Positions 23,571 to 55,694 of a DNA stretch of 64,000 nt are shown here, piece after piece. The notes beneath the pieces were generated by a model that saw nothing but the letters and a program-made list of their open reading frames with translations, did not search any database and was not told the DNA's origin. The stretch lies in the IMG/VR virus record IMGVR_UViG_3300025120_010521. One strand, given 5' to 3'. A program made the position numbers and the translations under genes. The DNA comes from a virus. Its lineage: Duplodnaviria > Caudoviricetes. Each line of letters starts with the position of its first letter. The first letter of the stretch is position 1.

Positions 23571-24023
23571 TTAAATTAGACTTTGAAAAGTACCCTGTTT
23601 ATTAATTGTAAGTACTTGTTTTCGGTTATCGGCATTGTCTTTATATGATATATGAACCCAGCCACTACGTGGGTCCTTGCCATTATAAAATTCAAGTATT
23701 AGCTGATCGAAGTCTAAATTGTTTTTGATCCATTCTGCTAAATCTCTATTGCTGAGAGTTGGTACTTCTATATCTGCCGCTTCTCCAAAACAATGCTGTG
23801 ATTTTTTGGAACCACCAATTGCTGTGTTTAATTTTTTACATCTATAACCTGAATTAATTACTGTAGGACCAAACTTATCTCTAACAGGCTGTAATATTTC
23901 TTCTGCAAGTGTTTGCATTTTAGAAACAATATCAGGATCTTTTGGTAAGTTATCAATACCTTTACGTAATGCTGTTTGACTTTTGCAAAGTTCTGCTAGT
24001 GAAAAATTATTAGTGAGTTGCAT
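23571..24023 (-). CDS. Peptidase M15A (endolysin-like)
   Basis: NSGYRC, SQH..GEAAD, WVHISY. Confidence 0.9.
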   Translation of the reverse strand: MQLTNNFSLAELCKSQTALRKGIDNLPKDPDIVSKMQTLAEEILQPVRDKFGPTVINSGYRCKKLNTAIGGSKKSQHCFGEAADIEVPTLSNRDLAEWIKNNLDFDQLILEFYNGKDPRSGWVHISYKDNADNRKQVLTINKQGTFQSLI

Positions 24024-24456
24024 GATTATCTTTTCCTTCTACCATGTCTCCGTATGTTTTGTAACCTGTTTTTACACTTTCATCTTTTGGATAATATATT
24101 TCACAACCATTTTCACCATCTTCAGATACTTCAATTCTTACATCACGTTTAACATACTTTTGCTTAATTTCTTTATATAAATCATCTGCCATCATTTCAC
24201 ATGACTTATAATCAAGTTCAAGTGTTTTTTCTGCATATAGTTTTTCAAGCCATCTTTTAAACTGTATAAATTCAATATCTCTATCATCATGGAATACTTC
24301 AATAGCGACTTTAAAATGAAATATATGTCTATGTGGATATCCTAAAAAACTAACATCATATTCATCACCTGTTGCAAGTTTAGGGTCATCTAATGCCGCC
24401 GGATACTTATGTATTCCTTCTTTTCTAAATGTTACCCAAATTAGTTTTTTCATCAA
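24010..24456 (-). CDS. queD: QueD-like 6-carboxy-tetrahydropterin synthase (T-fold)
   Basis: EGIHKYP, HRH, DRDIEF, SCEMMA, EVSEDGENG; FolE/QueE/TGT in the same window. Confidence 0.75.
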   Translation of the reverse strand: MMKKLIWVTFRKEGIHKYPAALDDPKLATGDEYDVSFLGYPHRHIFHFKVAIEVFHDDRDIEFIQFKRWLEKLYAEKTLELDYKSCEMMADDLYKEIKQKYVKRDVRIEVSEDGENGCEIYYPKDESVKTGYKTYGDMVEGKDNHATH

Positions 24457-25584: not shown

Positions 25585-25989
25585 CTATATGTCGCCTTCT
25601 TTTCTATTTTCACTTTTGGCCACATTAAATTCACCTTCTGGATATCTGGCCATTAGCTTTTCTTTATTCATACTAATTACTTTGTTAGGATCAACACCAA
25701 GTGCCATACACCCTTGTGTCCAATACCACATAACATCACCAAGTTCTTTAATCATGTGTGTTTTAGTTTCTTCTGTTAGTGGCTTTCCTTGAAACACTAG
25801 TTTTTTTACAATTTCTGTAAACTCTCCTGATTCTGCTGATAATCCCATTGCCGCTGTTAGTAATCTTGGAACATCTTTATTTCCTAAATCATCTAACCTT
25901 TGTCTAAATGCTGTTGAATCTTTAGATTCGTTGCTGGTAACTTTATCCACAAACTGTGAATATTCTTTTAAATCAATCTCTGACATCAT
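25585..25989 (-). CDS. MazG-like nucleoside triphosphate pyrophosphohydrolase
   Basis: GLSAESGEFTEIVKK...KELGDVMWY...NKEKLMARY. Confidence 0.85.
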   Translation of the reverse strand: MMSEIDLKEYSQFVDKVTSNESKDSTAFRQRLDDLGNKDVPRLLTAAMGLSAESGEFTEIVKKLVFQGKPLTEETKTHMIKELGDVMWYWTQGCMALGVDPNKVISMNKEKLMARYPEGEFNVAKSENRKEGDI

Positions 25990-28475: not shown

Positions 28476-28527
28476 ATTTTTTTACCTCCGACGTTTGTTA
28501 TTTTTACTAATATAACACTTATTTAGG

Positions 28528-29301
28528 TTATCTGTCAACAACTTTATTTGTATAATCCACTGCAATTTTAATATCAATCCATTCAGTTGGTTTTAACGTT
28601 GTTTTCCACCCTAGTTTCTTTAATTCTGAATTATCTGCTGTATTATCGTCAGCTTCTGCATCTTGGCCTTCTTGTATAGGAACATCATATCCTGCATGTT
28701 TTACTATATCAGATACTTTATATCCTTGGCCAGTTCCAACTTCGTAAGTTGTATTTCTATTTTCAGTTCCTTGTTCAACAAATATCATTATTGCTGAAAC
28801 AACATCTTCTACATAAATTAAATCTCGTATGTGTTCTGTAGCAAATTTAACTGTGCCATTGCGTATTCTTGACATTAGCATTGTATCTCTGGCTCCGTCA
28901 CCAAATACTGTTGTAAATCTTAGACCAACTTGCCCAGGATGTGCTACTGCCTCCATTGCTTTTTTGCTTGTGCCATATGGTGACTTCCACCATGCATGTA
29001 CACAAGATGAAGATGCATATACAACAGGAATATTATTTTTATGACATAGGTCAAATATGTTTTTACTATATTCTACATTAGTTGTCCAGTATAATTCTGG
29101 TTCTTTTAAACTACGTCTTACATCTGCTATTGCGGCCAAATGTACGACAAAGTCAATATCTGCTGGTATAGTAGCAGGAGAAAGGTCTTTGATATCTTTC
29201 CCGTGTGCTCTATCCCATTCAATAACTTCATGTCGACCAGCTAGTCGTTGGACTAGATGTTTTCCAATAAATCCTGTACTACCTGTTACAATTATTTTCA
29301 T
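28528..29301 (-). CDS. NAD-dependent nucleotide-sugar epimerase/dehydratase
   Basis: TGSTGFIG, HLAA, ASSS, YGTSK. Confidence 0.9.
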   Translation of the reverse strand: MKIIVTGSTGFIGKHLVQRLAGRHEVIEWDRAHGKDIKDLSPATIPADIDFVVHLAAIADVRRSLKEPELYWTTNVEYSKNIFDLCHKNNIPVVYASSSCVHAWWKSPYGTSKKAMEAVAHPGQVGLRFTTVFGDGARDTMLMSRIRNGTVKFATEHIRDLIYVEDVVSAIMIFVEQGTENRNTTYEVGTGQGYKVSDIVKHAGYDVPIQEGQDAEADDNTADNSELKKLGWKTTLKPTEWIDIKIAVDYTNKVVDR

Positions 29302-41454: not shown

Positions 41455-41778
41455 TTATGCCTTATTCGTTGTTTTATACGTTTCCCACTTTGGTTGTCCA
41501 GTTAGAGAAGTATTATACCCTTTTTTGCCACATTCTCTATAACAGGTCTTTATAGCAAACGATTTGTTAAATTTATTCATAAAATTAGACGTTTCTACTT
41601 GATTTGGAGTGTTTTTTTCAATATTTAAATCGTTTATATCAGCATTATTCTTTATAGCCCACTCTTTAAGCTCGTCTTTTTGAACATATACGAAGCAACA
41701 AGGATAAAGATTACCATCAGCACTTAAAAAATGTGCCATATCTTTAAAGCATTTTGGATCTAAATCTTCTACTGCCAT
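41455..41778 (-). CDS. stand-alone SPASM/twitch-like domain
   Basis: C...ADGNLYPCC...CYRECG. Confidence 0.7.
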   Translation of the reverse strand: MAVEDLDPKCFKDMAHFLSADGNLYPCCFVYVQKDELKEWAIKNNADINDLNIEKNTPNQVETSNFMNKFNKSFAIKTCYRECGKKGYNTSLTGQPKWETYKTTNKA

Positions 41779-42401
41779 TGTATGTTACGTCTTTCTTGAT
41801 CATTTTCAAACCATTGTGTATTGTATTTTCTTAAACTTTTGTAAGTTTCAAACTGATCAAATCCAATATCTTTTGCTAGTGCTCTTGCTTCTTCCACTTG
41901 GTGCTCATTATAAGGAAAAACCAAATACTTCCATTTAAGGTGTGGTCTTCGATATTTAGGAACCGAGGTAATTGTATTAAGAGCCAGCATAATACTTTTC
42001 CAATCACTATTTTTTCTATATATATGATTAGTGTCTTCAAGTCCATCAATACTAAAAATAAATCTATGATAACGTGGATTCCAATTAAATGAAATAAACT
42101 CATTCCAAAATTTTTCATTTCGGTATGCACCATTTGTTTCAACTGAAAATCCTTTATTTTGAGAAATCATAAACTCCATTATTTGATTAAAGTTTGGGTG
42201 ATACAATGCATCTCCAAATGCTCCACAAAAGTTGTAACTCCAATAATTGCTATTTGATACAAATGATTTAAGGACATCAACTTTCATAAATCCAGTATTC
42301 CAGGTATTGTCTTTCCAATAAGTTCTTGGACAAGCTGGACATTTAATTGTACACTTTGTTGAAATTTCTACATCTATTGATATGTTTTTTAACTTGAACA
42401 T
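41769..42401 (-). CDS. radical SAM core domain
   Basis: CTIKCPAC, GAFGDAL, ETNG, FSIDG. Confidence 0.85.
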   Translation of the reverse strand: MFKLKNISIDVEISTKCTIKCPACPRTYWKDNTWNTGFMKVDVLKSFVSNSNYWSYNFCGAFGDALYHPNFNQIMEFMISQNKGFSVETNGAYRNEKFWNEFISFNWNPRYHRFIFSIDGLEDTNHIYRKNSDWKSIMLALNTITSVPKYRRPHLKWKYLVFPYNEHQVEEARALAKDIGFDQFETYKSLRKYNTQWFENDQERRNIQWQ

Positions 42402-42426: not shown

Positions 42427-42660
42427 TTAATTAAATGCAGATTCATCTAGTTTAACTAGCTTGTCATATCCACCAATACTCGATCCATCAATATAAATCT
42501 GAGGCATAGTTCTATGACCTTCACCAATTATAAACTCACGTGCTTCTGGTTGTTCTTCAATGTTAATTTCTTTAAATTCAACACCTTTATTTTTTAACCA
42601 ATTTTTTGCTTGTACACAATATCCACACATGTTTTTACTATATACTATTACTTCTTTCAT
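42427..42660 (-). CDS. glutaredoxin
   Basis: CGYC, TMPQIYI, IGGY. Confidence 0.9.
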   Translation of the reverse strand: MKEVIVYSKNMCGYCVQAKNWLKNKGVEFKEINIEEQPEAREFIIGEGHRTMPQIYIDGSSIGGYDKLVKLDESAFN

Positions 42661-42662
42661 TA

Positions 42663-43766
42663 TTATTTTCCTTCTTTAGCAAATTTAAATTCTTTTAGTT
42701 TCACATCAAAAGTTATAAACTTGCCATCTCTATAAACTTTAACTTTTAATGTATCGCCAATATCATTATACCATAATTGTTTAATAATGTCAAGTGATCC
42801 AATAACTTCTTCGCCACCTACTGAAACTATCACATCATCAGATTTTAATCCTGCTACAAAGGCCGCTCCGTCTTCTGGTGTTTTATCAACTTTAACAACT
42901 GAGCTTATTCCTTTATCTAATAATTCTTGTCTTTCTTCCAGTGTTTCAACTGCTTTCATATGTATGCCAATTGCTGGATATGTTACATATCCTTTTTCTA
43001 TAATTTGATCAACTGATCTTTTTGCTAAATCTGAAGGAACTGAAAATCCAACTCCTGAGAAAGATCCAGTTCTTGAAAATAATAATGTGTTTACTCCAAT
43101 AACTTCTCCACACATATTAAATAATGGACCTCCAGAGTTACCTTGATTAATAACTGTATCAGATTGATTATATGTAATCATAGGTTTTGTAGTATCTGGT
43201 CGTCTATCTTTATAACTTATAATTCCTTTTGTAACTGCCCACGGCATACTTAACCCGTGACCAATTGCGATAACATCTTCACCTATTTCTAATTTTTCAC
43301 TATCTCCCCATTTAACAAATTTTGTTGGACCTTCTGGATTAATTCTTATTACGGCAATATCAGCAATTTCATCTACACCTACTATTTCTGCTTCGCTATA
43401 TTCTAAAGGAGATTCCCAATAGTATATTCTTAGACTAGATGCATTTTTTACAACGTGTGCATTAGTAACAATGTATCCATTATCATTAATAAAAAAACCT
43501 GTTCCTACTCCTGCTGATGGTTGCGGAAGACTAGGCATTAATCCACCAAATTCGCTTTCTTCTCCAGTGTCTAAAGTTCTTTCCATATAAATGTATACAA
43601 CACTAGGAATAGTTTCTGCAACTATTTCAGGTGTTGTGTTATACATACAAGAGTTATATACAAATGTATTTGGATTATTGTCGTCATCATATGATGCTAG
43701 TGCATTAGTCGTAAATAATAATACCATTGCCATTAGTGCTGGTATTACATTAAAAATTTTATTCAT
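42663..43766 (-). CDS. HtrA/DegP-family periplasmic serine protease with one PDZ domain
   Basis: Signal peptide, TNAHV / DIAVI / GNSGGPL triad, PDZ. Confidence 0.92.
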   Translation of the reverse strand: MNKIFNVIPALMAMVLLFTTNALASYDDDNNPNTFVYNSCMYNTTPEIVAETIPSVVYIYMERTLDTGEESEFGGLMPSLPQPSAGVGTGFFINDNGYIVTNAHVVKNASSLRIYYWESPLEYSEAEIVGVDEIADIAVIRINPEGPTKFVKWGDSEKLEIGEDVIAIGHGLSMPWAVTKGIISYKDRRPDTTKPMITYNQSDTVINQGNSGGPLFNMCGEVIGVNTLLFSRTGSFSGVGFSVPSDLAKRSVDQIIEKGYVTYPAIGIHMKAVETLEERQELLDKGISSVVKVDKTPEDGAAFVAGLKSDDVIVSVGGEEVIGSLDIIKQLWYNDIGDTLKVKVYRDGKFITFDVKLKEFKFAKEGK

Positions 43767-46333: not shown

Positions 46334-46940
46334 TAGGATCGTGTGTAAGATTAGACATCTGTTCTAATCTAGTTGTTGGATATTTGTCTCTGTTTTTAAG
46401 AAATTCTTCGTGATGTATCATTTTACCATTAACAAGGAATCCCCAATGATCACCTTCTGTTTTTTTACCCATAAAAAATATACTCCAACAAGGAATTTCA
46501 TTGCCATTTTCATCTTTGGCTAATTCTAAATAGTGTAAATCTTCTGCTTTTCTAAATCTTATACTGCCAGGACCCCTCCAAAATTTACCTTTAGGAGTAT
46601 GTTCCCAATATCCACCTTTTAATATTATAGCACCCCAATTCCAAGGATGACTATGTAGTATTGGTTCATCACCTAACATCACTTTGTGTAATGTAAAGTT
46701 AAAAGGAAAGTTTTTTCTATCTTTTAAAAACAAATAGTATCTCACAAGATACTCTCGTGTATTATCTCTGTTGTAAATAATTCTTTTTCTATCTTTAAAT
46801 AATGTTGATATCAATAACACTGCAAATACTCCCACACATGCAATAAACATAATTGTTGTTTTAAATACCTTGACAACTGTTTCTGCTACATCTACTTTTG
46901 AAACTATTTCTTCTGCTTTAAACCAAATATCTTTGATCAT
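46320..46940 (-). CDS. putative cupin-fold protein
   Basis: LHKV...LHSHPW...GGYWE...HYLEL His pattern. Confidence 0.5.
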   Translation of the reverse strand: MIKDIWFKAEEIVSKVDVAETVVKVFKTTIMFIACVGVFAVLLISTLFKDRKRIIYNRDNTREYLVRYYLFLKDRKNFPFNFTLHKVMLGDEPILHSHPWNWGAIILKGGYWEHTPKGKFWRGPGSIRFRKAEDLHYLELAKDENGNEIPCWSIFFMGKKTEGDHWGFLVNGKMIHHEEFLKNRDKYPTTRLEQMSNLTHDPIAHC

Positions 46941-47863
46941 GTTCCTATCGCATTACCAAAAAGATAAACGTGAACTCTCGCCGCGACATTGTAACCACGT
47001 TTGAAAGCCTTTTCGGCAACCTTTCCTGCACCTGCTGTTTGTTCTTCTTCTCTTGCACCTGTAGGCATAACCCATACTGGCCAATCAACACCTTGTGCTT
47101 TAAAAAGTTTAATTACTTCTTCCATTTCTTCCCACTCTCTATCATCAGGACCTACCACAAACTTTAATTGTCCTTTGCTAGAAAGTTTTCTATACTCTGC
47201 CACAATCTCAGGCTTGATTGCTTTTTCTCTTTTCTCACCGGATACTGTAAACAGTTTAGGACTACAACTAAAGAATATTTCTGTATCAATTCTGTTAACC
47301 CAATCAATAAATGGTTGTCTAAGTTTTTGTGTGCCATTAGTTTCAAATGTCATCGATCCAGGCAAGTTACCTTGTCTTTCAAGTTCTTCATATATGCCTA
47401 TGGTTGCTGTTTGTCCTGTAACCATTAATGGCTCTCCACCTGTGATACACAAATGTTGACTTTGTCCTGTTACTGGGTGTTTAAATAATCCTTGTGGATT
47501 ACTTTCATTCTTCATTATATCAACTATTTTGTTTGCCATCACAGTTGGTGTTTCTTGACCCATCAGCTCTTTAAACTTCTTAGCCCATGTGTAACTTGAA
47601 TCACAACCTTTGTCCCAAACAGGCAAGTCTTCAACTTTGTCTACACTAGATACATCAAAATTTTCAAATGGCAAATCATATGTGTCTGGGTTGGTTGGAT
47701 CTATTTGCCCAAACCCATTGCATTGCAAATTGCACAAGAAGAAACGTATCCATGCTGTTGGAACACCTGTGTAATGTCCTTCACCTTGAATACTGTGAAA
47801 TATTTCAGAATAATAGAACTTCTTTTCTACAGTTTTACCAAACTCATGTTGTGCTAATGCCAT
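46937..47863 (-). CDS. queE: QueE-like 7-carboxy-7-deazaguanine synthase (radical SAM)
   Basis: SEIFHSIQGEG..TG.P..W.RF, CNLQC...GCDS, ITGGEP, ETNG, SPKL. Confidence 0.85.
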   Translation of the reverse strand: MALAQHEFGKTVEKKFYYSEIFHSIQGEGHYTGVPTAWIRFFLCNLQCNGFGQIDPTNPDTYDLPFENFDVSSVDKVEDLPVWDKGCDSSYTWAKKFKELMGQETPTVMANKIVDIMKNESNPQGLFKHPVTGQSQHLCITGGEPLMVTGQTATIGIYEELERQGNLPGSMTFETNGTQKLRQPFIDWVNRIDTEIFFSCSPKLFTVSGEKREKAIKPEIVAEYRKLSSKGQLKFVVGPDDREWEEMEEVIKLFKAQGVDWPVWVMPTGAREEEQTAGAGKVAEKAFKRGYNVAARVHVYLFGNAIGT

Positions 47864-48489: not shown

Positions 48490-49002
48490 CTATATAGCCC
48501 ACCACTCTTCCCATGGATATACTATCCATTGAGGATGGTCGATTTTATTGATGAACTTTGATACATAATCAACATCACCAAATTTGCTTGGTTCATTTTC
48601 AACCAATACTGCAAATCTTATATTGTCTTCCCAATTAATTTCTGACTTGTTGTTTTTAATAATTTTACCACTGTTATTCCAATCTTGTTTAATCCAAGAT
48701 AATGTTTCACCGGTATCGTTAATGTCGTCAACGATTAAAATCTTTTTACCATCAAGGGCATCTTGGGCCATCCACTTATTTGATTCTGGTTGAACAGCAT
48801 GATCTCGTAATTTAATTTCTAATGTATGCATTGGCACTTCAAAGTAATGACTTATCATTGTTGCAGGAATTAATCCACCTCGTGTTAATCCTACTATGTA
48901 GTCTGGTTTAAATCCATCACCGTCAACTGCAATTTGTTGGATAACATCTGATGTCATATCTTCAATGTCTTGCCAACTATAATAAATTTTTTTATCTGCC
49001 AT
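48490..49002 (-). CDS. type I (purine-type) phosphoribosyltransferase
   Basis: VGLTRGGLIP, LIVDDINDTGET, WIVYPWE. Confidence 0.9.
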   Translation of the reverse strand: MADKKIYYSWQDIEDMTSDVIQQIAVDGDGFKPDYIVGLTRGGLIPATMISHYFEVPMHTLEIKLRDHAVQPESNKWMAQDALDGKKILIVDDINDTGETLSWIKQDWNNSGKIIKNNKSEINWEDNIRFAVLVENEPSKFGDVDYVSKFINKIDHPQWIVYPWEEWWAI

Positions 49003-50741: not shown

Positions 50742-51428
50742 CTACCTTGGAGCAAATTCTTGTTGTAATTTAATATTGTCCATAAACTCTTTTTTAGTTC
50801 CTTCAATATTTTTAAAATCACCTCTTAACACTGTGGTTTGTGTTAAACTACTGTGTGCTTTAATACCTCTGTTTTCACAGCAACCATGTGTTGCTTGTAC
50901 ATACACACCAACGTGTTCACTGCCTGTTTGCTTTTGAATTGCGTTAGCAATCATAACATTAAGTTCTTCTTGTAGTGTTCCACGTTTTGCACACCATTGT
51001 GCAATTCTTGTGTACTTGCTTAAACCTAATAGTTTAGGACCAGCAATGATACCAATGTATGCTACACCAGACACTGGCTGGTGATGATGTGAACAAACAC
51101 TTTTAAGTTCACTTCTTACAACAAGCATACCTTCATATCCATTTTCAATGTAGTTAGGAAATGCACTTGGATTAGGCATGTCTTCATATCTGCCACTCAT
51201 GATTTCGTTGATGTACATTTTTGCCATACGCCTTGCAGTATCTTTGCTGTTAGGATCTGTTTCAGTATCTATTAGTAAACTTTGTAGTACATTTTCAAAA
51301 GCAGGAACTGCCTCATCAATTAGTTGTTGTTTTTCACCTGGCTCAATATATTTAGAGATATTATCATTAGCCCAGTATCTTGTGTTGTTATCTTTTAGTC
51401 TCTGTAGAATTTTATCTTTTATTTTCAT
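50742..51428 (-). CDS. folE: GTP cyclohydrolase I; likely start 51428
   Basis: TARRMAKMY, CSHHHQP, GLSK..RI, RGTLQE, HGC...RG. Confidence 0.95.
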   Translation of the reverse strand: MKIKDKILQRLKDNNTRYWANDNISKYIEPGEKQQLIDEAVPAFENVLQSLLIDTETDPNSKDTARRMAKMYINEIMSGRYEDMPNPSAFPNYIENGYEGMLVVRSELKSVCSHHHQPVSGVAYIGIIAGPKLLGLSKYTRIAQWCAKRGTLQEELNVMIANAIQKQTGSEHVGVYVQATHGCCENRGIKAHSSLTQTTVLRGDFKNIEGTKKEFMDNIKLQQEFAPR

Positions 51429-51434
51429 TACCAT

Positions 51435-51461
51435 TCTCCGATGTTAAGGCAGTGGATTGCC
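51435..51461 (-). promoter_or_regulatory. candidate compact H-type pseudoknot / riboswitch in the folE leader
   Basis: GGCA-AUCCAC-UGCC-UUAACAU-CGGAGA; loop UCC can pair with the SD GGA. Confidence 0.45.
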
Positions 51462-51511
51462 GTTAATATTTCTTATTATAACAATTTTGTTTTGAAAATG
51501 CAAGTATTTTT

Positions 51512-55154: not shown

Positions 55155-55694
55155 TTATTTATCTTTCAAAAAGTCAGTAATATTTAGACCATATTTGATA
55201 GAATTTACTTTGTGTACCCCTAATAGATACAATATGTATGATGATACAGATGATCCTCTACCTACTCCCCATACAATTTTATTTTCTCTCATTGTGTCGA
55301 TTAAATATACTAAAAATCTTAATACATCTAGTATAGCAAATTTTTTGTATAAAATCAATTCTTCTTCAACTCTTATTTTTTCATTTGTGTCTTTAGCTAA
55401 ATTTCTAACATGTTCTTCAATATCCATATTTTTATAATTACTTGGCATGTACCAATCTGATTGTAATGCACGATCATAATCTTCAACTGGAATATCTATA
55501 TCAGTTAATTTTTTGATAGCTGGCCACTCTAATGATAAATCTTCTATAATAGAATTATACTTTTCAACTCTATCATCATTAACTCTAACCTTATCAATAT
55601 CATAACCTTGATATACCAATTCAATTAAATCATTGCAATTTACGATTGGTTCACCATATTGATTTGTGTTTGTAATACGACCTACTTCTGACAT
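55155..55694 (-). CDS. DnaE (Pol III alpha)-like fragment
   Basis: RVEEELILY, GVGRGSSVSSYILYLLGVHKVN.IKYGL resembles DnaE GPGRGSAAGSLV.Y.LGIT.DP. Confidence 0.7.
   Translation of the reverse strand: MSEVGRITNTNQYGEPIVNCNDLIELVYQGYDIDKVRVNDDRVEKYNSIIEDLSLEWPAIKKLTDIDIPVEDYDRALQSDWYMPSNYKNMDIEEHVRNLAKDTNEKIRVEEELILYKKFAILDVLRFLVYLIDTMRENKIVWGVGRGSSVSSYILYLLGVHKVNSIKYGLNITDFLKDK

Follow-up and report, generated by a model that had tools for sequence, protein, structure and literature searches.

A conserved hairpin leader of phage folE genes as a candidate small preQ1-I-like translational switch

The preQ1-I riboswitches are the closest described systems in architecture to the RNA considered here. 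Their specificity C adjoins the 3' strand of P1 and is preceded by A or U, and O6 of the closing-pair nucleotide G5 contacts the aminomethyl group of preQ1 (PMC11625349). The initial U of L1 reads the ligand edge, and the adenines located just before P2 both recognise the ligand and pack into the minor groove of P1; in type III from E. coli, P2 is formed by CCU:AGG, and yhhQ is a regulatory target of this type (PMC10622847). We analysed the leader of a phage folE gene within a window of 64,000 nt, by which we mean the whole stretch of viral DNA under study (Duplodnaviria; Caudoviricetes; IMG/VR record IMGVR_UViG_3300025120_010521). The architecture of this leader mirrors preQ1-I riboswitches, with type III being closest. 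It shares with them a covarying P1, the specificity C and the association with 7-deazaguanine genes, and it lacks the closing G, the L1 U, the A-rich L3 before P2 and a match to the covariance model. An earlier note on this DNA had called the leader preQ1-I-like, which holds for the layout (short P1, loop-final C before the P1 3' strand, UCC/GGA) but not for three features of the pocket. The elements which that note had read, i.e. the -10 box, the GGCA/UGCC hairpin, the loop AUCCAC and GGAG, are present exactly as described on the minus strand. Together with the genes on which the argument draws, the features are as follows.

51503-51498, minus strand: weak -35 hexamer TTGCAT, read directly, with 3/6 consensus positions
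51475..51483, minus strand: extended -10 TGtTATAAT (hexamer TATAAT at 51480-51475); the 17-nt spacer from the -35 ends in TGt
51461-51458, minus strand: P1 5' strand GGCA, read directly
51457-51452, minus strand: hairpin loop AUCCAC, read directly, with A51457 as L1, U51456-C51454 as proposed P2 5' strand and the invariant C51452 as candidate specificity base
51451-51448, minus strand: P1 3' strand UGCC, read directly
51447-51440, minus strand: L3 linker UUAACAUC, with the conserved unit NNAAC(A)UC
51439-51436, minus strand: Shine-Dalgarno GGAG, with G51439, G51438 and A51437 as proposed P2 3' strand
50742..51428, minus strand: folE (GTP cyclohydrolase I), the proposed regulated gene (Pfam PF01227, 2e-38; NCBIfam FolE)
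46937..47863, minus strand: divergent QueE-like radical-SAM gene with its own TTGACA-16-TATAAT promoter at 47915-47888
24010..24456, minus strand: DpdL homologue (proposed CDG decarboxylase), 34% identical to phiST CGPG_00067 (E 1e-14)

Two in-frame ATGs are available to folE, at 51434 and 51428. Since only the latter is workably spaced from GGAG, with a gap of 7 nt compared to 5-9 nt in relatives, we place the start at 51428. The earlier note had derived a leader of ~40 nt from the -10 box; TATAAT is found there, and from its position we infer a transcription start near 51468 and hence a leader of about that length. The promoter is absent from the list returned by a promoter scan of the window, owing to a -35 that agrees at just three of six positions. 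In relatives, promoters lie 11-23 nt 5' of the motif and typically read TTGACA-N4-CCTAAATA-N5-TATAAT. Near-identical folE 5' fragments occur in metatranscriptome contigs from three studies; these contigs reveal no start, and DNA carry-over is possible. The folding energy of the leader taken by itself is ordinary (MFE -5.4 kcal/mol vs a shuffle mean of -5.29, z = -0.05), and the hairpin in the window sequence alone is thus no better than chance. P1 and P2 are both marginal in energy when taken singly, as a ligand-stabilised switch would need them to be. It is on comparison with relatives, by conservation and covariation, that we regard the structure as real.

The motif lies directly 5' of folE in 129 distinct phage contexts and spans hundreds of related phages, marine large and jumbo phages included. 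The MAFFT alignment A1 placed gaps inside the stem and was replaced by A4 and A5, both of which are model-guided, i.e. fitted to the model's structure. In A4, 99.4% of P1 cells are paired and three of the four pairs show compensatory change; in A5 all four do, and the observed covariation score was matched by 0/500 shuffles. The 129 contexts hold 21 stem combinations, in which the inner pairs 2-4 are 100% Watson-Crick, and two pattern scans contributed further combinations. Judged by compensatory changes at 4/4 pairs across relatives, P1 is a real RNA helix. The conserved, structured 5' leader overlapping the Shine-Dalgarno which the earlier note had foreseen is therefore recovered in these 129 contexts with P1 covariation, and collecting folE leaders and checking them for covariation, as it had suggested, found the motif kept across phages with compensatory change at every P1 pair.

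The loop reads AUCC[A/U/C]C in 123/129 contexts. Its first base is A in all 129, the next U being predicted to lie inside P2, and its final C is likewise found in 129/129, where the search pattern demanded C, as well as in the variant L020, which was found by hand. The base before this C is A in 88, U in 37 and C in 4 contexts, and at the closing pair of P1 the 5' strand contributes C in 77, A in 49 and G in 3. The commonest L3 is AUAACUC, and the conserved unit of the linker is NNAAC(A)UC instead of the UUAACA pointed out at first reading. Among the unpaired positions, loop A1, the CC opposite the Shine-Dalgarno GG and the final C are conserved, as are AAC and UC in L3; conservation of unpaired positions is typical of a binding pocket.

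The link of the motif to folE is exclusive. Two gene-blind pattern scans of IMG/VR gave at least 120 matches each. Among the matches listed, type A carried the stem in 117/120, with folE downstream in 115/115 that had enough downstream sequence, and type B in 111/120, with folE downstream in 105/106 assessable. Taken together, folE lies 3' of 220/221 assessable stem-bearing matches listed, and none of the 11 stemless matches listed with enough downstream sequence precedes folE. The association is therefore unbiased by the search. No second copy was found in the window, each large contig holds a single copy, and at the yhhQ loci the motif is never directly before yhhQ and always before folE. 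Model R2 at E <= 1e-3 found nothing in five bacterial genomes and in 151 Gammaproteobacterial and 151 Alphaproteobacterial sampled genomes, and the closest cultured phages, Sinorhizobium phage Phosso, Rhizobium phage RHph_I1_18 and Vibrio phage 2.275.O, showed no model match. The Phosso folE leader carries another hairpin followed by an A-rich tail. A pattern scan of genome_contigs found the stem in 3/120 matches listed, as many as chance would give, with none close to a start codon; the pattern was too loose for the result to be informative on bacteria. A literature search returned no description of the motif.

This distribution bears on the possibility of a protein-binding translational operator, in which a phage RNA-binding repressor, or FolE, grips both the loop and the tail AAC(A)UC-GGAG, thereby blocking the ribosome. 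T4 gp43, gp32 and RegA are ribosome-blocking translational repressors on their targets, and the phage has T4-like replication genes, e.g. a gp44-like clamp loader. A stem that covaries while its loop and the single-stranded tail across the Shine-Dalgarno stay invariant is an operator signature too, the T4 gene 43 translational operator has the loop AAUAACUC, to be compared with the commonest L3 AUAACUC, and absence from the sampled bacteria would suit a phage-specific factor. However, in the window, the loci and contigs up to 316 kb the motif was found only before folE and not before replication genes or any other gene, and it accompanies folE across contigs with differing neighbour genes, so that a trans-acting factor would need to travel along. 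We know of no RNA-binding activity of FolE, and architecture and gene context fit a known metabolite-sensing class. We consider such an operator unlikely.

The pseudoknot proposed by the earlier note, between loop UCC and Shine-Dalgarno GGA, agrees with complementarity in 97% of cells, but this pairing is invariant and not covarying. The lack of true covariation is accounted for by two strands that hardly vary, the 3' one being the Shine-Dalgarno, which is conserved in any case. Class-2 leaders have loops AUACCUAC, AUACCUC and ACACCCUC together with a Shine-Dalgarno (A)AGGAA, and here CCU pairs with AGG, replacing UCC:GGA. This register has at least three origins on the FolE tree, which supports the view that the predicted P2 is kept through an alternative register. 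Natural variants that weaken P2, with one or two pairs broken, are L058 (loop ACCCAC) and L061 (loop ACACAC). P2 is preceded by UC in class-1 leaders and by UA or AA in class-2 leaders, and of the L3 adenines only the AA of AAC is conserved. The linker is in turn coupled to P1: L3 contains an extra A precisely when the closing pair is A-U (43/43 vs 0/74), a rule obeyed as well in 228 pattern-found matches among those listed. On the FolE tree this state changes 22 times, with seven independent supported pairs that are all concordant (p = 0.016). By its position, where an H-type pseudoknot puts L3, the coupling can be read as a tertiary signal; in part it could also reflect two leader haplotypes moving as units.

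These observations also weigh on a ligand-independent role, in which a constitutive hairpin or pseudoknot fixes low translation or mRNA stability, or serves as a processing site, and nothing is sensed. The ordinary folding energy and the P2 without covariation are in line with it, as is the weak TTG codon with which half of the folE genes start, a hint that their expression is held low; GGAG is moreover the RegB-type cleavage site in T4-like phages. Attenuating hairpins would not, however, be expected to fix at least six unpaired positions over FolE divergence to ~70% identity, nor to show a coupled change of closing pair and L3, and three base-pairs alone would be too weak for constitutive occlusion of the Shine-Dalgarno. 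A structure that senses nothing therefore seems improbable to us.

The genes around folE confirm the deazaguanine-pathway setting that the earlier note had assigned, with folE-queE-like and folE-yhhQ operons in relatives and QueE-like and DpdL-like genes in the window. For the QueE-like gene, each of the five top NCBIfam matches is to a QueE model and stays below its cutoff (E 4e-10 to 2e-5), and homologues occur in 52/80 loci, mostly immediately 3' of folE. In the window just folE would be directly controlled, since the QueE-like gene has its own promoter. The DpdL homologue shows, as LGYPHRHIF, the signature LxxxHRHxF defined for DpdL (PMC10516641), and DpdL is present in 5/5 large related contigs, 3-5 kb from folE. 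YhhQ, a preQ0/preQ1 transporter (TIGR00697, 92 bits, above cutoff), lies directly 3' of folE at three loci (L002, L005 and L020) and immediately after it in 11 more found through YhhQ. In the five large related contigs (two near-complete genomes) no QueC was found above the Pfam cutoff, with two weak sub-cutoff matches, and TGT, HPPK and phiST DpdA3 are absent, the latter in a BLAST-level search that a divergent DpdA could escape. QueF, for which only the neighbourhood was checked, was seen beside folE in Vibrio phage 2.275.O. With no QueC above cutoff in near-complete related genomes and QueF seen only in 2.275.O, preQ1 is not the evident product of the phage pathway, which looks more like a FolE-QueE-DpdL route to 7-deazaguanine than like a route to preQ1.

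On the same genes depends the possibility that the leader senses a pterin or folate (THF, H2-neopterin, CPH4) or guanine/GTP and not a 7-deazaguanine, in parallel to bacterial THF-II. The sole gene always downstream is folE, as for THF-II, an XGPRT-like phosphoribosyltransferase lies near folE in 55/80 loci, and the pocket nucleotides are unlike those of preQ1-I; pterins and guanine have a common 2-amino-4-oxo face that can be read by a C. Yet a folate route is not encoded by the phages, as HPPK is missing and DHFR is found in only one of the five large contigs, the co-transcribed genes are QueE-like or YhhQ with DpdL always nearby, and the THF-II model gave no match. For guanine or GTP, an OFF switch triggered by the substrate would in addition oppose the pathway. 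Sensing of these compounds is thus quite doubtful.

Rfam scans in evalue mode (301 nt and 49 nt of the window, a class-2 leader, the Phosso leader) and in gathering mode (cultured-phage and yhhQ loci) returned no riboswitch family. At E <= 10 the PreQ1 model matched neither slice of the window (301 and 49 nt) nor the class-2 leader, and the comparison with preQ1 and folE/THF-II models which the earlier note had named, made with PreQ1, PreQ1-II/III and the THF-II/folE motif, gave no match even at E <= 10 on the 49-nt slice. Its wording 'smaller and non-consensus' is in agreement with an RNA of ~25 nt that matches no Rfam model. That the leader is an ordinary preQ1-I member sensing preQ1, merely too short for the Rfam model, would fit the same topology, a specificity C after A or U as in types I-III, the use of the Shine-Dalgarno in P2 as in type III and yhhQ in the operon at some loci, but is very improbable given that the closing G, which makes the aminomethyl contact, is kept in 3/129 contexts (C 77, A 49), that L1 is A and not U, that the poly-A before P2 is missing, that 49 nt gave no model match at E <= 10, and that preQ1 is not the evident product (QueC not above cutoff in two near-complete related genomes).

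We propose for the folE leader the role of a translational OFF switch, preQ1-I-like but new and smaller, whose ligand is probably 7-deazaguanine, CDG or preQ0/preQ1, and assign this reading a probability of roughly 0.55. The leader would act in cis through a very small H-type pseudoknot in which P1 through P2 take up ~25 nt. P1 would measure 4 bp, and P2, which we infer from loop UCC and Shine-Dalgarno GGA, 3 bp. L1 would consist of one nucleotide (A), L2 of two nucleotides ending in the invariant C, and L3, NNAAC(A)UC, would follow the P1 minor groove to the inter-helix junction. By analogy to preQ1-I, a guanine-faced ligand would sit between the two short helices, paired to the invariant C, and stabilise P2, so that the Shine-Dalgarno would be hidden and less FolE translated; in many relatives a co-transcribed QueE-like or YhhQ gene would be affected too. 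The 7-deazaguanine pathway would in this way be under feedback control. As ligands we regard bases of the 7-deazaguanine family as most likely, i.e. DG, CDG, preQ0 or preQ1, of which preQ1 is less favoured, since FolE, the QueE-like protein and DpdL occur without QueC and the preQ1-specific closing G is lost.

We put forward more tentatively, as a reading of rather low probability, a new riboswitch class sensing 7-deazaguanine or 7-carboxy-7-deazaguanine, which would be the smallest natural aptamer (~25 nt) and would govern a pathway possibly building DNA 7-deazaguanine nucleotides prior to replication. This pathway would comprise FolE, the QueE-like protein, DpdL, MazG and the XGPRT-like phosphoribosyltransferase; neither QueC nor DpdA/TGT was detected. 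To our knowledge, 25 nt is below any natural aptamer, and we know of no riboswitch for either compound. If a ligand binds, the leader would set a new lower size limit for natural aptamers and present a preQ1-I scaffold rebuilt with another pocket floor and linker, possibly for another 7-deazapurine. Given how widespread the motif is, a phage-borne sensor of metabolites would here operate on an ecological scale, and the motif marks a conserved set of 7-deazaguanine genes that is poorly described in these phages.

Among known systems, the T4 gene 43 operator is also a short hairpin by a Shine-Dalgarno, in a T4-like phage, and its octamer AAUAACUC resembles L3 AUAACUC. In T4, however, the octamer forms the hairpin loop and the operator is bound by the protein that the regulated gene itself encodes, whereas the similar sequence of the folE leader is an unpaired linker upstream of folE, and no copy lies before a polymerase gene. 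THF-II ('folE motif', RF03111) likewise resides in the folE 5' UTR and almost nowhere else, with presumed feedback on GTP cyclohydrolase I and a guanine-like ligand face. It is, in contrast, a hairpin of ~53 nt with internal loops and without pseudoknot, compared to a 14-nt hairpin with tail in the phages; it belongs to Alphaproteobacteria, its model is unmatched here, and the neighbours of the phage gene are 7-deazaguanine and not folate genes. PreQ1-I types I/II (B. subtilis queC, T. tengcongensis) share the pseudoknot of hairpin and 3' tail, a C after U or A that reads the guanine face of the ligand and a Shine-Dalgarno partly in P2; the T. tengcongensis and B. subtilis tails open UUAAC or AUAA, like the folE-leader tail. 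They differ in loops of 10-12 nt, a 5-bp P1 with conserved closing G-C and a long A-rich L3, and they bury two Shine-Dalgarno nucleotides and often act via transcription terminators. PreQ1-I type III (E. coli yhhQ leader; RF00522) is larger, with 30-36 nt vs ~25 nt and a 4-bp P1 and 2-nt L2 here, and is found in gammaproteobacteria before yhhQ, not in marine phages before folE. It has a conserved G-C closing pair vs C-G or A-U, an L1 U vs A, and four to five ligand-reading adenines in L3 vs NNAAC(A)UC; the folE-leader P2 is usually UCC:GGA, and the Rfam model is unmatched. With type III the folE leader nevertheless has most in common: a compact H-type pseudoknot, as predicted here, with short P1 and single-nucleotide L1, a pyrimidine-rich loop in which CC(U) pairs with the Shine-Dalgarno, exactly as CCU:AGG in class-2 variants, a specificity C right before the P1 3' strand and preceded by A, the translational OFF logic that we propose, and 7-deazaguanine genes including yhhQ.

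Read directly on the minus strand from 51503 to 51426, the window shows, in this order, TTGCAT, a 17-nt spacer with the 3′ end TGt, TATAAT, AAGAAAUAUUAAC and the hairpin GGCA-AUCCAC-UGCC, followed by UUAACAUC, GGAG, AAUGGUA and AUG, so that every element which the earlier note had described was recovered at its position. The open reading frame from 51428 encodes GTP cyclohydrolase I (Pfam 2e-38; NCBIfam FolE). A second in-frame ATG at 51434 lies just 1 nt past GGAGA; the ATG at 51428 is spaced by 7 nt, as in relatives (range 5–9 nt), and is likely the folE start, the longest-ORF start at 51434 probably being wrong. Taken alone, the leader is unremarkable, with a minimum free energy from the window sequence alone of −5.4 kcal/mol, equal to the shuffle mean (z = −0.05). 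The folE promoter, whose −35 element is weak, was not among the results of the consensus promoter scan. Relatives (loci L007–L039) have in common a sequence resembling a promoter, with the consensus TTGACA-N4-CCTAAATA-N5-TATAAT, which lies between a few and about 20 nt 5′ of the motif; the folE promoter of the window lacks the CCTAAATA box, and one site of this type is located elsewhere, at 28509-28538 on the minus strand. Near-identical folE fragments are present in metatranscriptome contigs, which do not define the transcript.

IMG/VR abounds in FolE relatives of 70–88% identity: more than 600 stretches matched, of which 80 were kept per query. By a strict pattern, 60 of the first 80 loci carry the same leader as a single copy on the coding strand directly 5′ of folE, with no further copy in the approximately 6.6 kb searched per locus. 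The covariance model places the motif in 62 of 81 sources (the window and these 80 loci), and the 64-kb window contains it just once. Each of four large contigs holds exactly one copy, and the reversed-pattern control gave zero matches. The motif thus recurs 5′ of other phage folE genes, as expected from the earlier note, with 129 distinct sequence contexts among 320 phage loci. Some of the FolE proteins have N-terminal extensions of 20–60 residues after the motif.

Since FolE was used to find all those loci, IMG/VR was rescanned by two sequence patterns (type A and type B) with the stem left free, which yielded at least 120 matches each and for which a stem is expected by chance in about 5% of matches. 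Among the 120 type A matches listed, 117 have a complementary stem, with folE downstream in 115 of 115 assessable cases (two lie too near a contig end), and none of the three stemless matches is followed by folE. Among the 120 type B matches listed, 111 have the stem, with folE downstream in 105 of 106 assessable cases (five too near a contig end), and folE follows none of the eight assessable among nine stemless matches. In loci retrieved by YhhQ, a preQ0/preQ1 transporter, the motif occurs in 11 of 80; it always lies about 730 nt upstream of yhhQ, on the 5′ side of folE, and in no case immediately precedes yhhQ itself. It was not found in 302 sampled proteobacterial genomes, and no published description was found in the literature.

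P1, the 4-bp hairpin stem, occurs in 21 combinations in the 129 contexts, to which the pattern scans add more; GGCA/UGCC, AGAC/GUCU, GGUC/GACC, CGAC/GUCG, UGUC/GACA, CCCA/UGGG, GCCA/UGGC and UGUG/CACA are among those seen. Pairing amounts to 99.4% and 95.5% in two model-guided leader alignments, A4 and A5, with compensatory changes at three of four and four of four pairs, respectively, and pairs 2–4 are Watson–Crick in 129 of 129 contexts. The observed covariation score was matched by 0 of 500 shuffles, and pairing falls to 24–49% once the 3′ partners are slid; the check for covariation in phage folE leaders suggested earlier therefore came out positive for P1. A single U–G pair in locus L238 would be an A–C mismatch on the opposite strand, which favours an RNA element over a DNA palindrome. 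Of the 129 contexts, 123 have the loop AUCC[A/U/C]C; the linker reads NNAAC(A)UC and is followed by GGAG. The loop-final C directly 5′ of the P1 3′ strand is never missing from the leaders examined, among them the variant L020, which was found by hand; the search pattern behind the 129 contexts required this C.

For the proposed helix P2, loop UCC and Shine-Dalgarno GGA are complementary in 97% of cells, and both sides are invariant, so that classical covariation is not seen. In the rare leaders L058 (ACCCAC) and L061 (ACACAC), one or two P2 pairs are lost. A second class features loops of 7–8 nt (AUACCUAC, AUACCUC, ACACCCUC) without UCC and the Shine-Dalgarno sequence (A)AGGAA, where CCU can pair with AGG; compared to the UCC:GGA register of class 1, the U–A pair is shifted to the opposite end of the CC:GG core. 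On the FolE tree, class 2 appears in three or more places, with class-1 relatives of 92% FolE identity as neighbours. H-type pseudoknots place the 3′ end of linker L3 at the helical junction, next to the P1 closing pair. In our leaders, the linker ends in CAUC or CAUA if this pair is A–U (43/43) and in CUC if it is C–G or G–C (74/74), a rule which also holds for 228 pattern-only matches among the matches listed. This state changes 22 times on the FolE tree, and all seven independent supported contrasts are concordant with the coupling (p = 0.016). In part, the two states may be haplotypes in linkage, each of which recombines as a unit. Alternative P2 register and P1–L3 coupling together support an H-type fold. 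In preQ1-I riboswitches, the floor of the ligand pocket is built at that junction, beside the P1 closing pair (PMC10622847).

The window encodes the following genes related to the pathway:

24010-24456, minus strand: homologue of CGPG_00067 of Cellulophaga phage phiST, which is DpdL, a proposed decarboxylase of 7-carboxy-7-deazaguanine (CDG) (PMC10516641); signature LxxxHRHxF as LGYPHRHIF
25585-25989, minus strand: MazG
46937-47863, minus strand: divergent QueE-like radical-SAM protein; top NCBIfam matches all QueE (E 4e-10 to 2e-5), all sub-cutoff
48490-49002, minus strand: XGPRT-like phosphoribosyltransferase

In 52 of 80 loci, the folE strand carries a homologue of the QueE-like frame, which in most of them begins directly after the folE stop codon, and 55 of 80 encode the phosphoribosyltransferase close to folE. 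DpdL is found in five of five large contigs, within 3–5 kb of folE. PTPS/QueD is encoded close to folE in 5 of 80 loci; of the large contigs, three of five have it. Several loci have YhhQ (TIGR00697, 92 bits, above cutoff; PF02592) immediately downstream of folE. Of the cultured relatives in the FolE clade, Vibrio phage 2.275.O additionally carries queF, yhhQ and queC at the folE locus and Sinorhizobium phage Phosso a queE-like gene. On balance, although not uniformly, the findings favour the link to deazaguanine metabolism drawn earlier (QueE-like, YhhQ, DpdL). What speaks against a full route to preQ1 is that two related genomes close to completeness (316 kb, 91%; 518 kb, 100%) gave nothing above the Pfam cutoff for QueC and zero TGT matches. 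HPPK was not found there either, nor was TGT/DpdA or phiST-type DpdA3 detected, where a very divergent DpdA could escape. In phiST DNA, 7-deazaguanine replaces G, and its set of FolE, QueD, QueE and DpdL without QueC is as in these phages (PMC10516641). From the annotations, a conserved 7-deazaguanine-type gene set (FolE, QueE-like, DpdL, MazG, XGPRT-like phosphoribosyltransferase) is common to them. Speculatively, the phosphoribosyltransferase might convert the 7-deazaguanine base to the nucleotide, a pre-replicative route independent of DpdA.

A HIT-domain protein is encoded near folE in 34 of 80 loci. L020, L012 and L003 encode a nucleoside-binding lipoprotein of the PnrA/Bmp type after folE or yhhQ, which hints at nucleoside or base salvage tied to the same module. 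Five folE–yhhQ loci (L364, L368, L369, L371, L378) contain two conserved intergenic hairpins at about 1430–1500 in each locus, just 5′ of the yhhQ Shine-Dalgarno (UUAACACA...UGUGUUAA, then GGUGC-AUG-GCACC, then AAAAUAAAGGAGG); they have no Rfam match and may act as a terminator or as a control element in their own right. Auxiliary genes are numerous in the window:

41769-42401, minus strand: second radical-SAM protein, best match tungsten-cofactor maturase
42427-42660, minus strand: glutaredoxin
42663-43766, minus strand: DegP-like protease with PDZ domain
55155-55694, minus strand: DNA polymerase III alpha-like fragment, 179 aa
58139-59635, minus strand: M17 leucyl aminopeptidase

Comparative evidence shows a leader that folds P1. 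We propose that a guanine-faced ligand would pair with the invariant C, whereupon the 3-bp P2 would form and hide the Shine-Dalgarno sequence, and FolE translation would fall as the pathway product builds up. According to folding energies each helix is weak individually, which renders ligand-dependent stabilisation plausible, and with folE start codons split between TTG (64) and ATG (64), initiation should be sensitive to Shine-Dalgarno access in the TTG half. In view of the genes present and of the absence of the preQ1-specific G, 7-deazaguanine, CDG or preQ0 are at least as likely candidate ligands as preQ1. That the leader instead serves as a protein operator is improbable; its commonest linker, AUAACUC followed by GG (51440-51446, minus strand, and type-B leaders), resembles the loop AAUAACUC in the translational operator of T4 gene 43, a likeness which may be coincidence. 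An attenuator working independently of any ligand appears just as doubtful.

Compared to known families, no Rfam family, preQ1-I included, matches the leader, and the covariance search against preQ1 and folE/THF-II models proposed earlier likewise gave no match; THF-II, the other folE-specific riboswitch, also differs in shape. In the folE leader of Phosso (L281, 2880-2945), a hairpin, UGUGG-13 nt-CCACA, has C as its last loop base and is followed by an A-rich tail ending in AAUAACUUAGGAG; this leader matches neither the motif covariance model nor Rfam and may be a longer relative. By published preQ1-I definitions (PMC11625349, PMC10622847), the motif has neither the conserved closing G nor the U of L1 nor the poly-A segment, and spans about 25 nt in contrast to 30–36 nt. 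Owing to these missing features, the shorter size and the Rfam result, we do not file it as a preQ1-I member. Common to the motif and preQ1-I are the H-type topology and a Shine-Dalgarno sequence as part of P2, both as predicted for the motif, the specificity C, which follows A or U, and the regulon. The nearest subtype is type III, which features a single-nucleotide L1, a pyrimidine-rich loop and a CCU:AGG P2 and controls yhhQ (PMC10622847). We treat the motif as a new, smaller preQ1-I-like variant, which probably works in a like manner.
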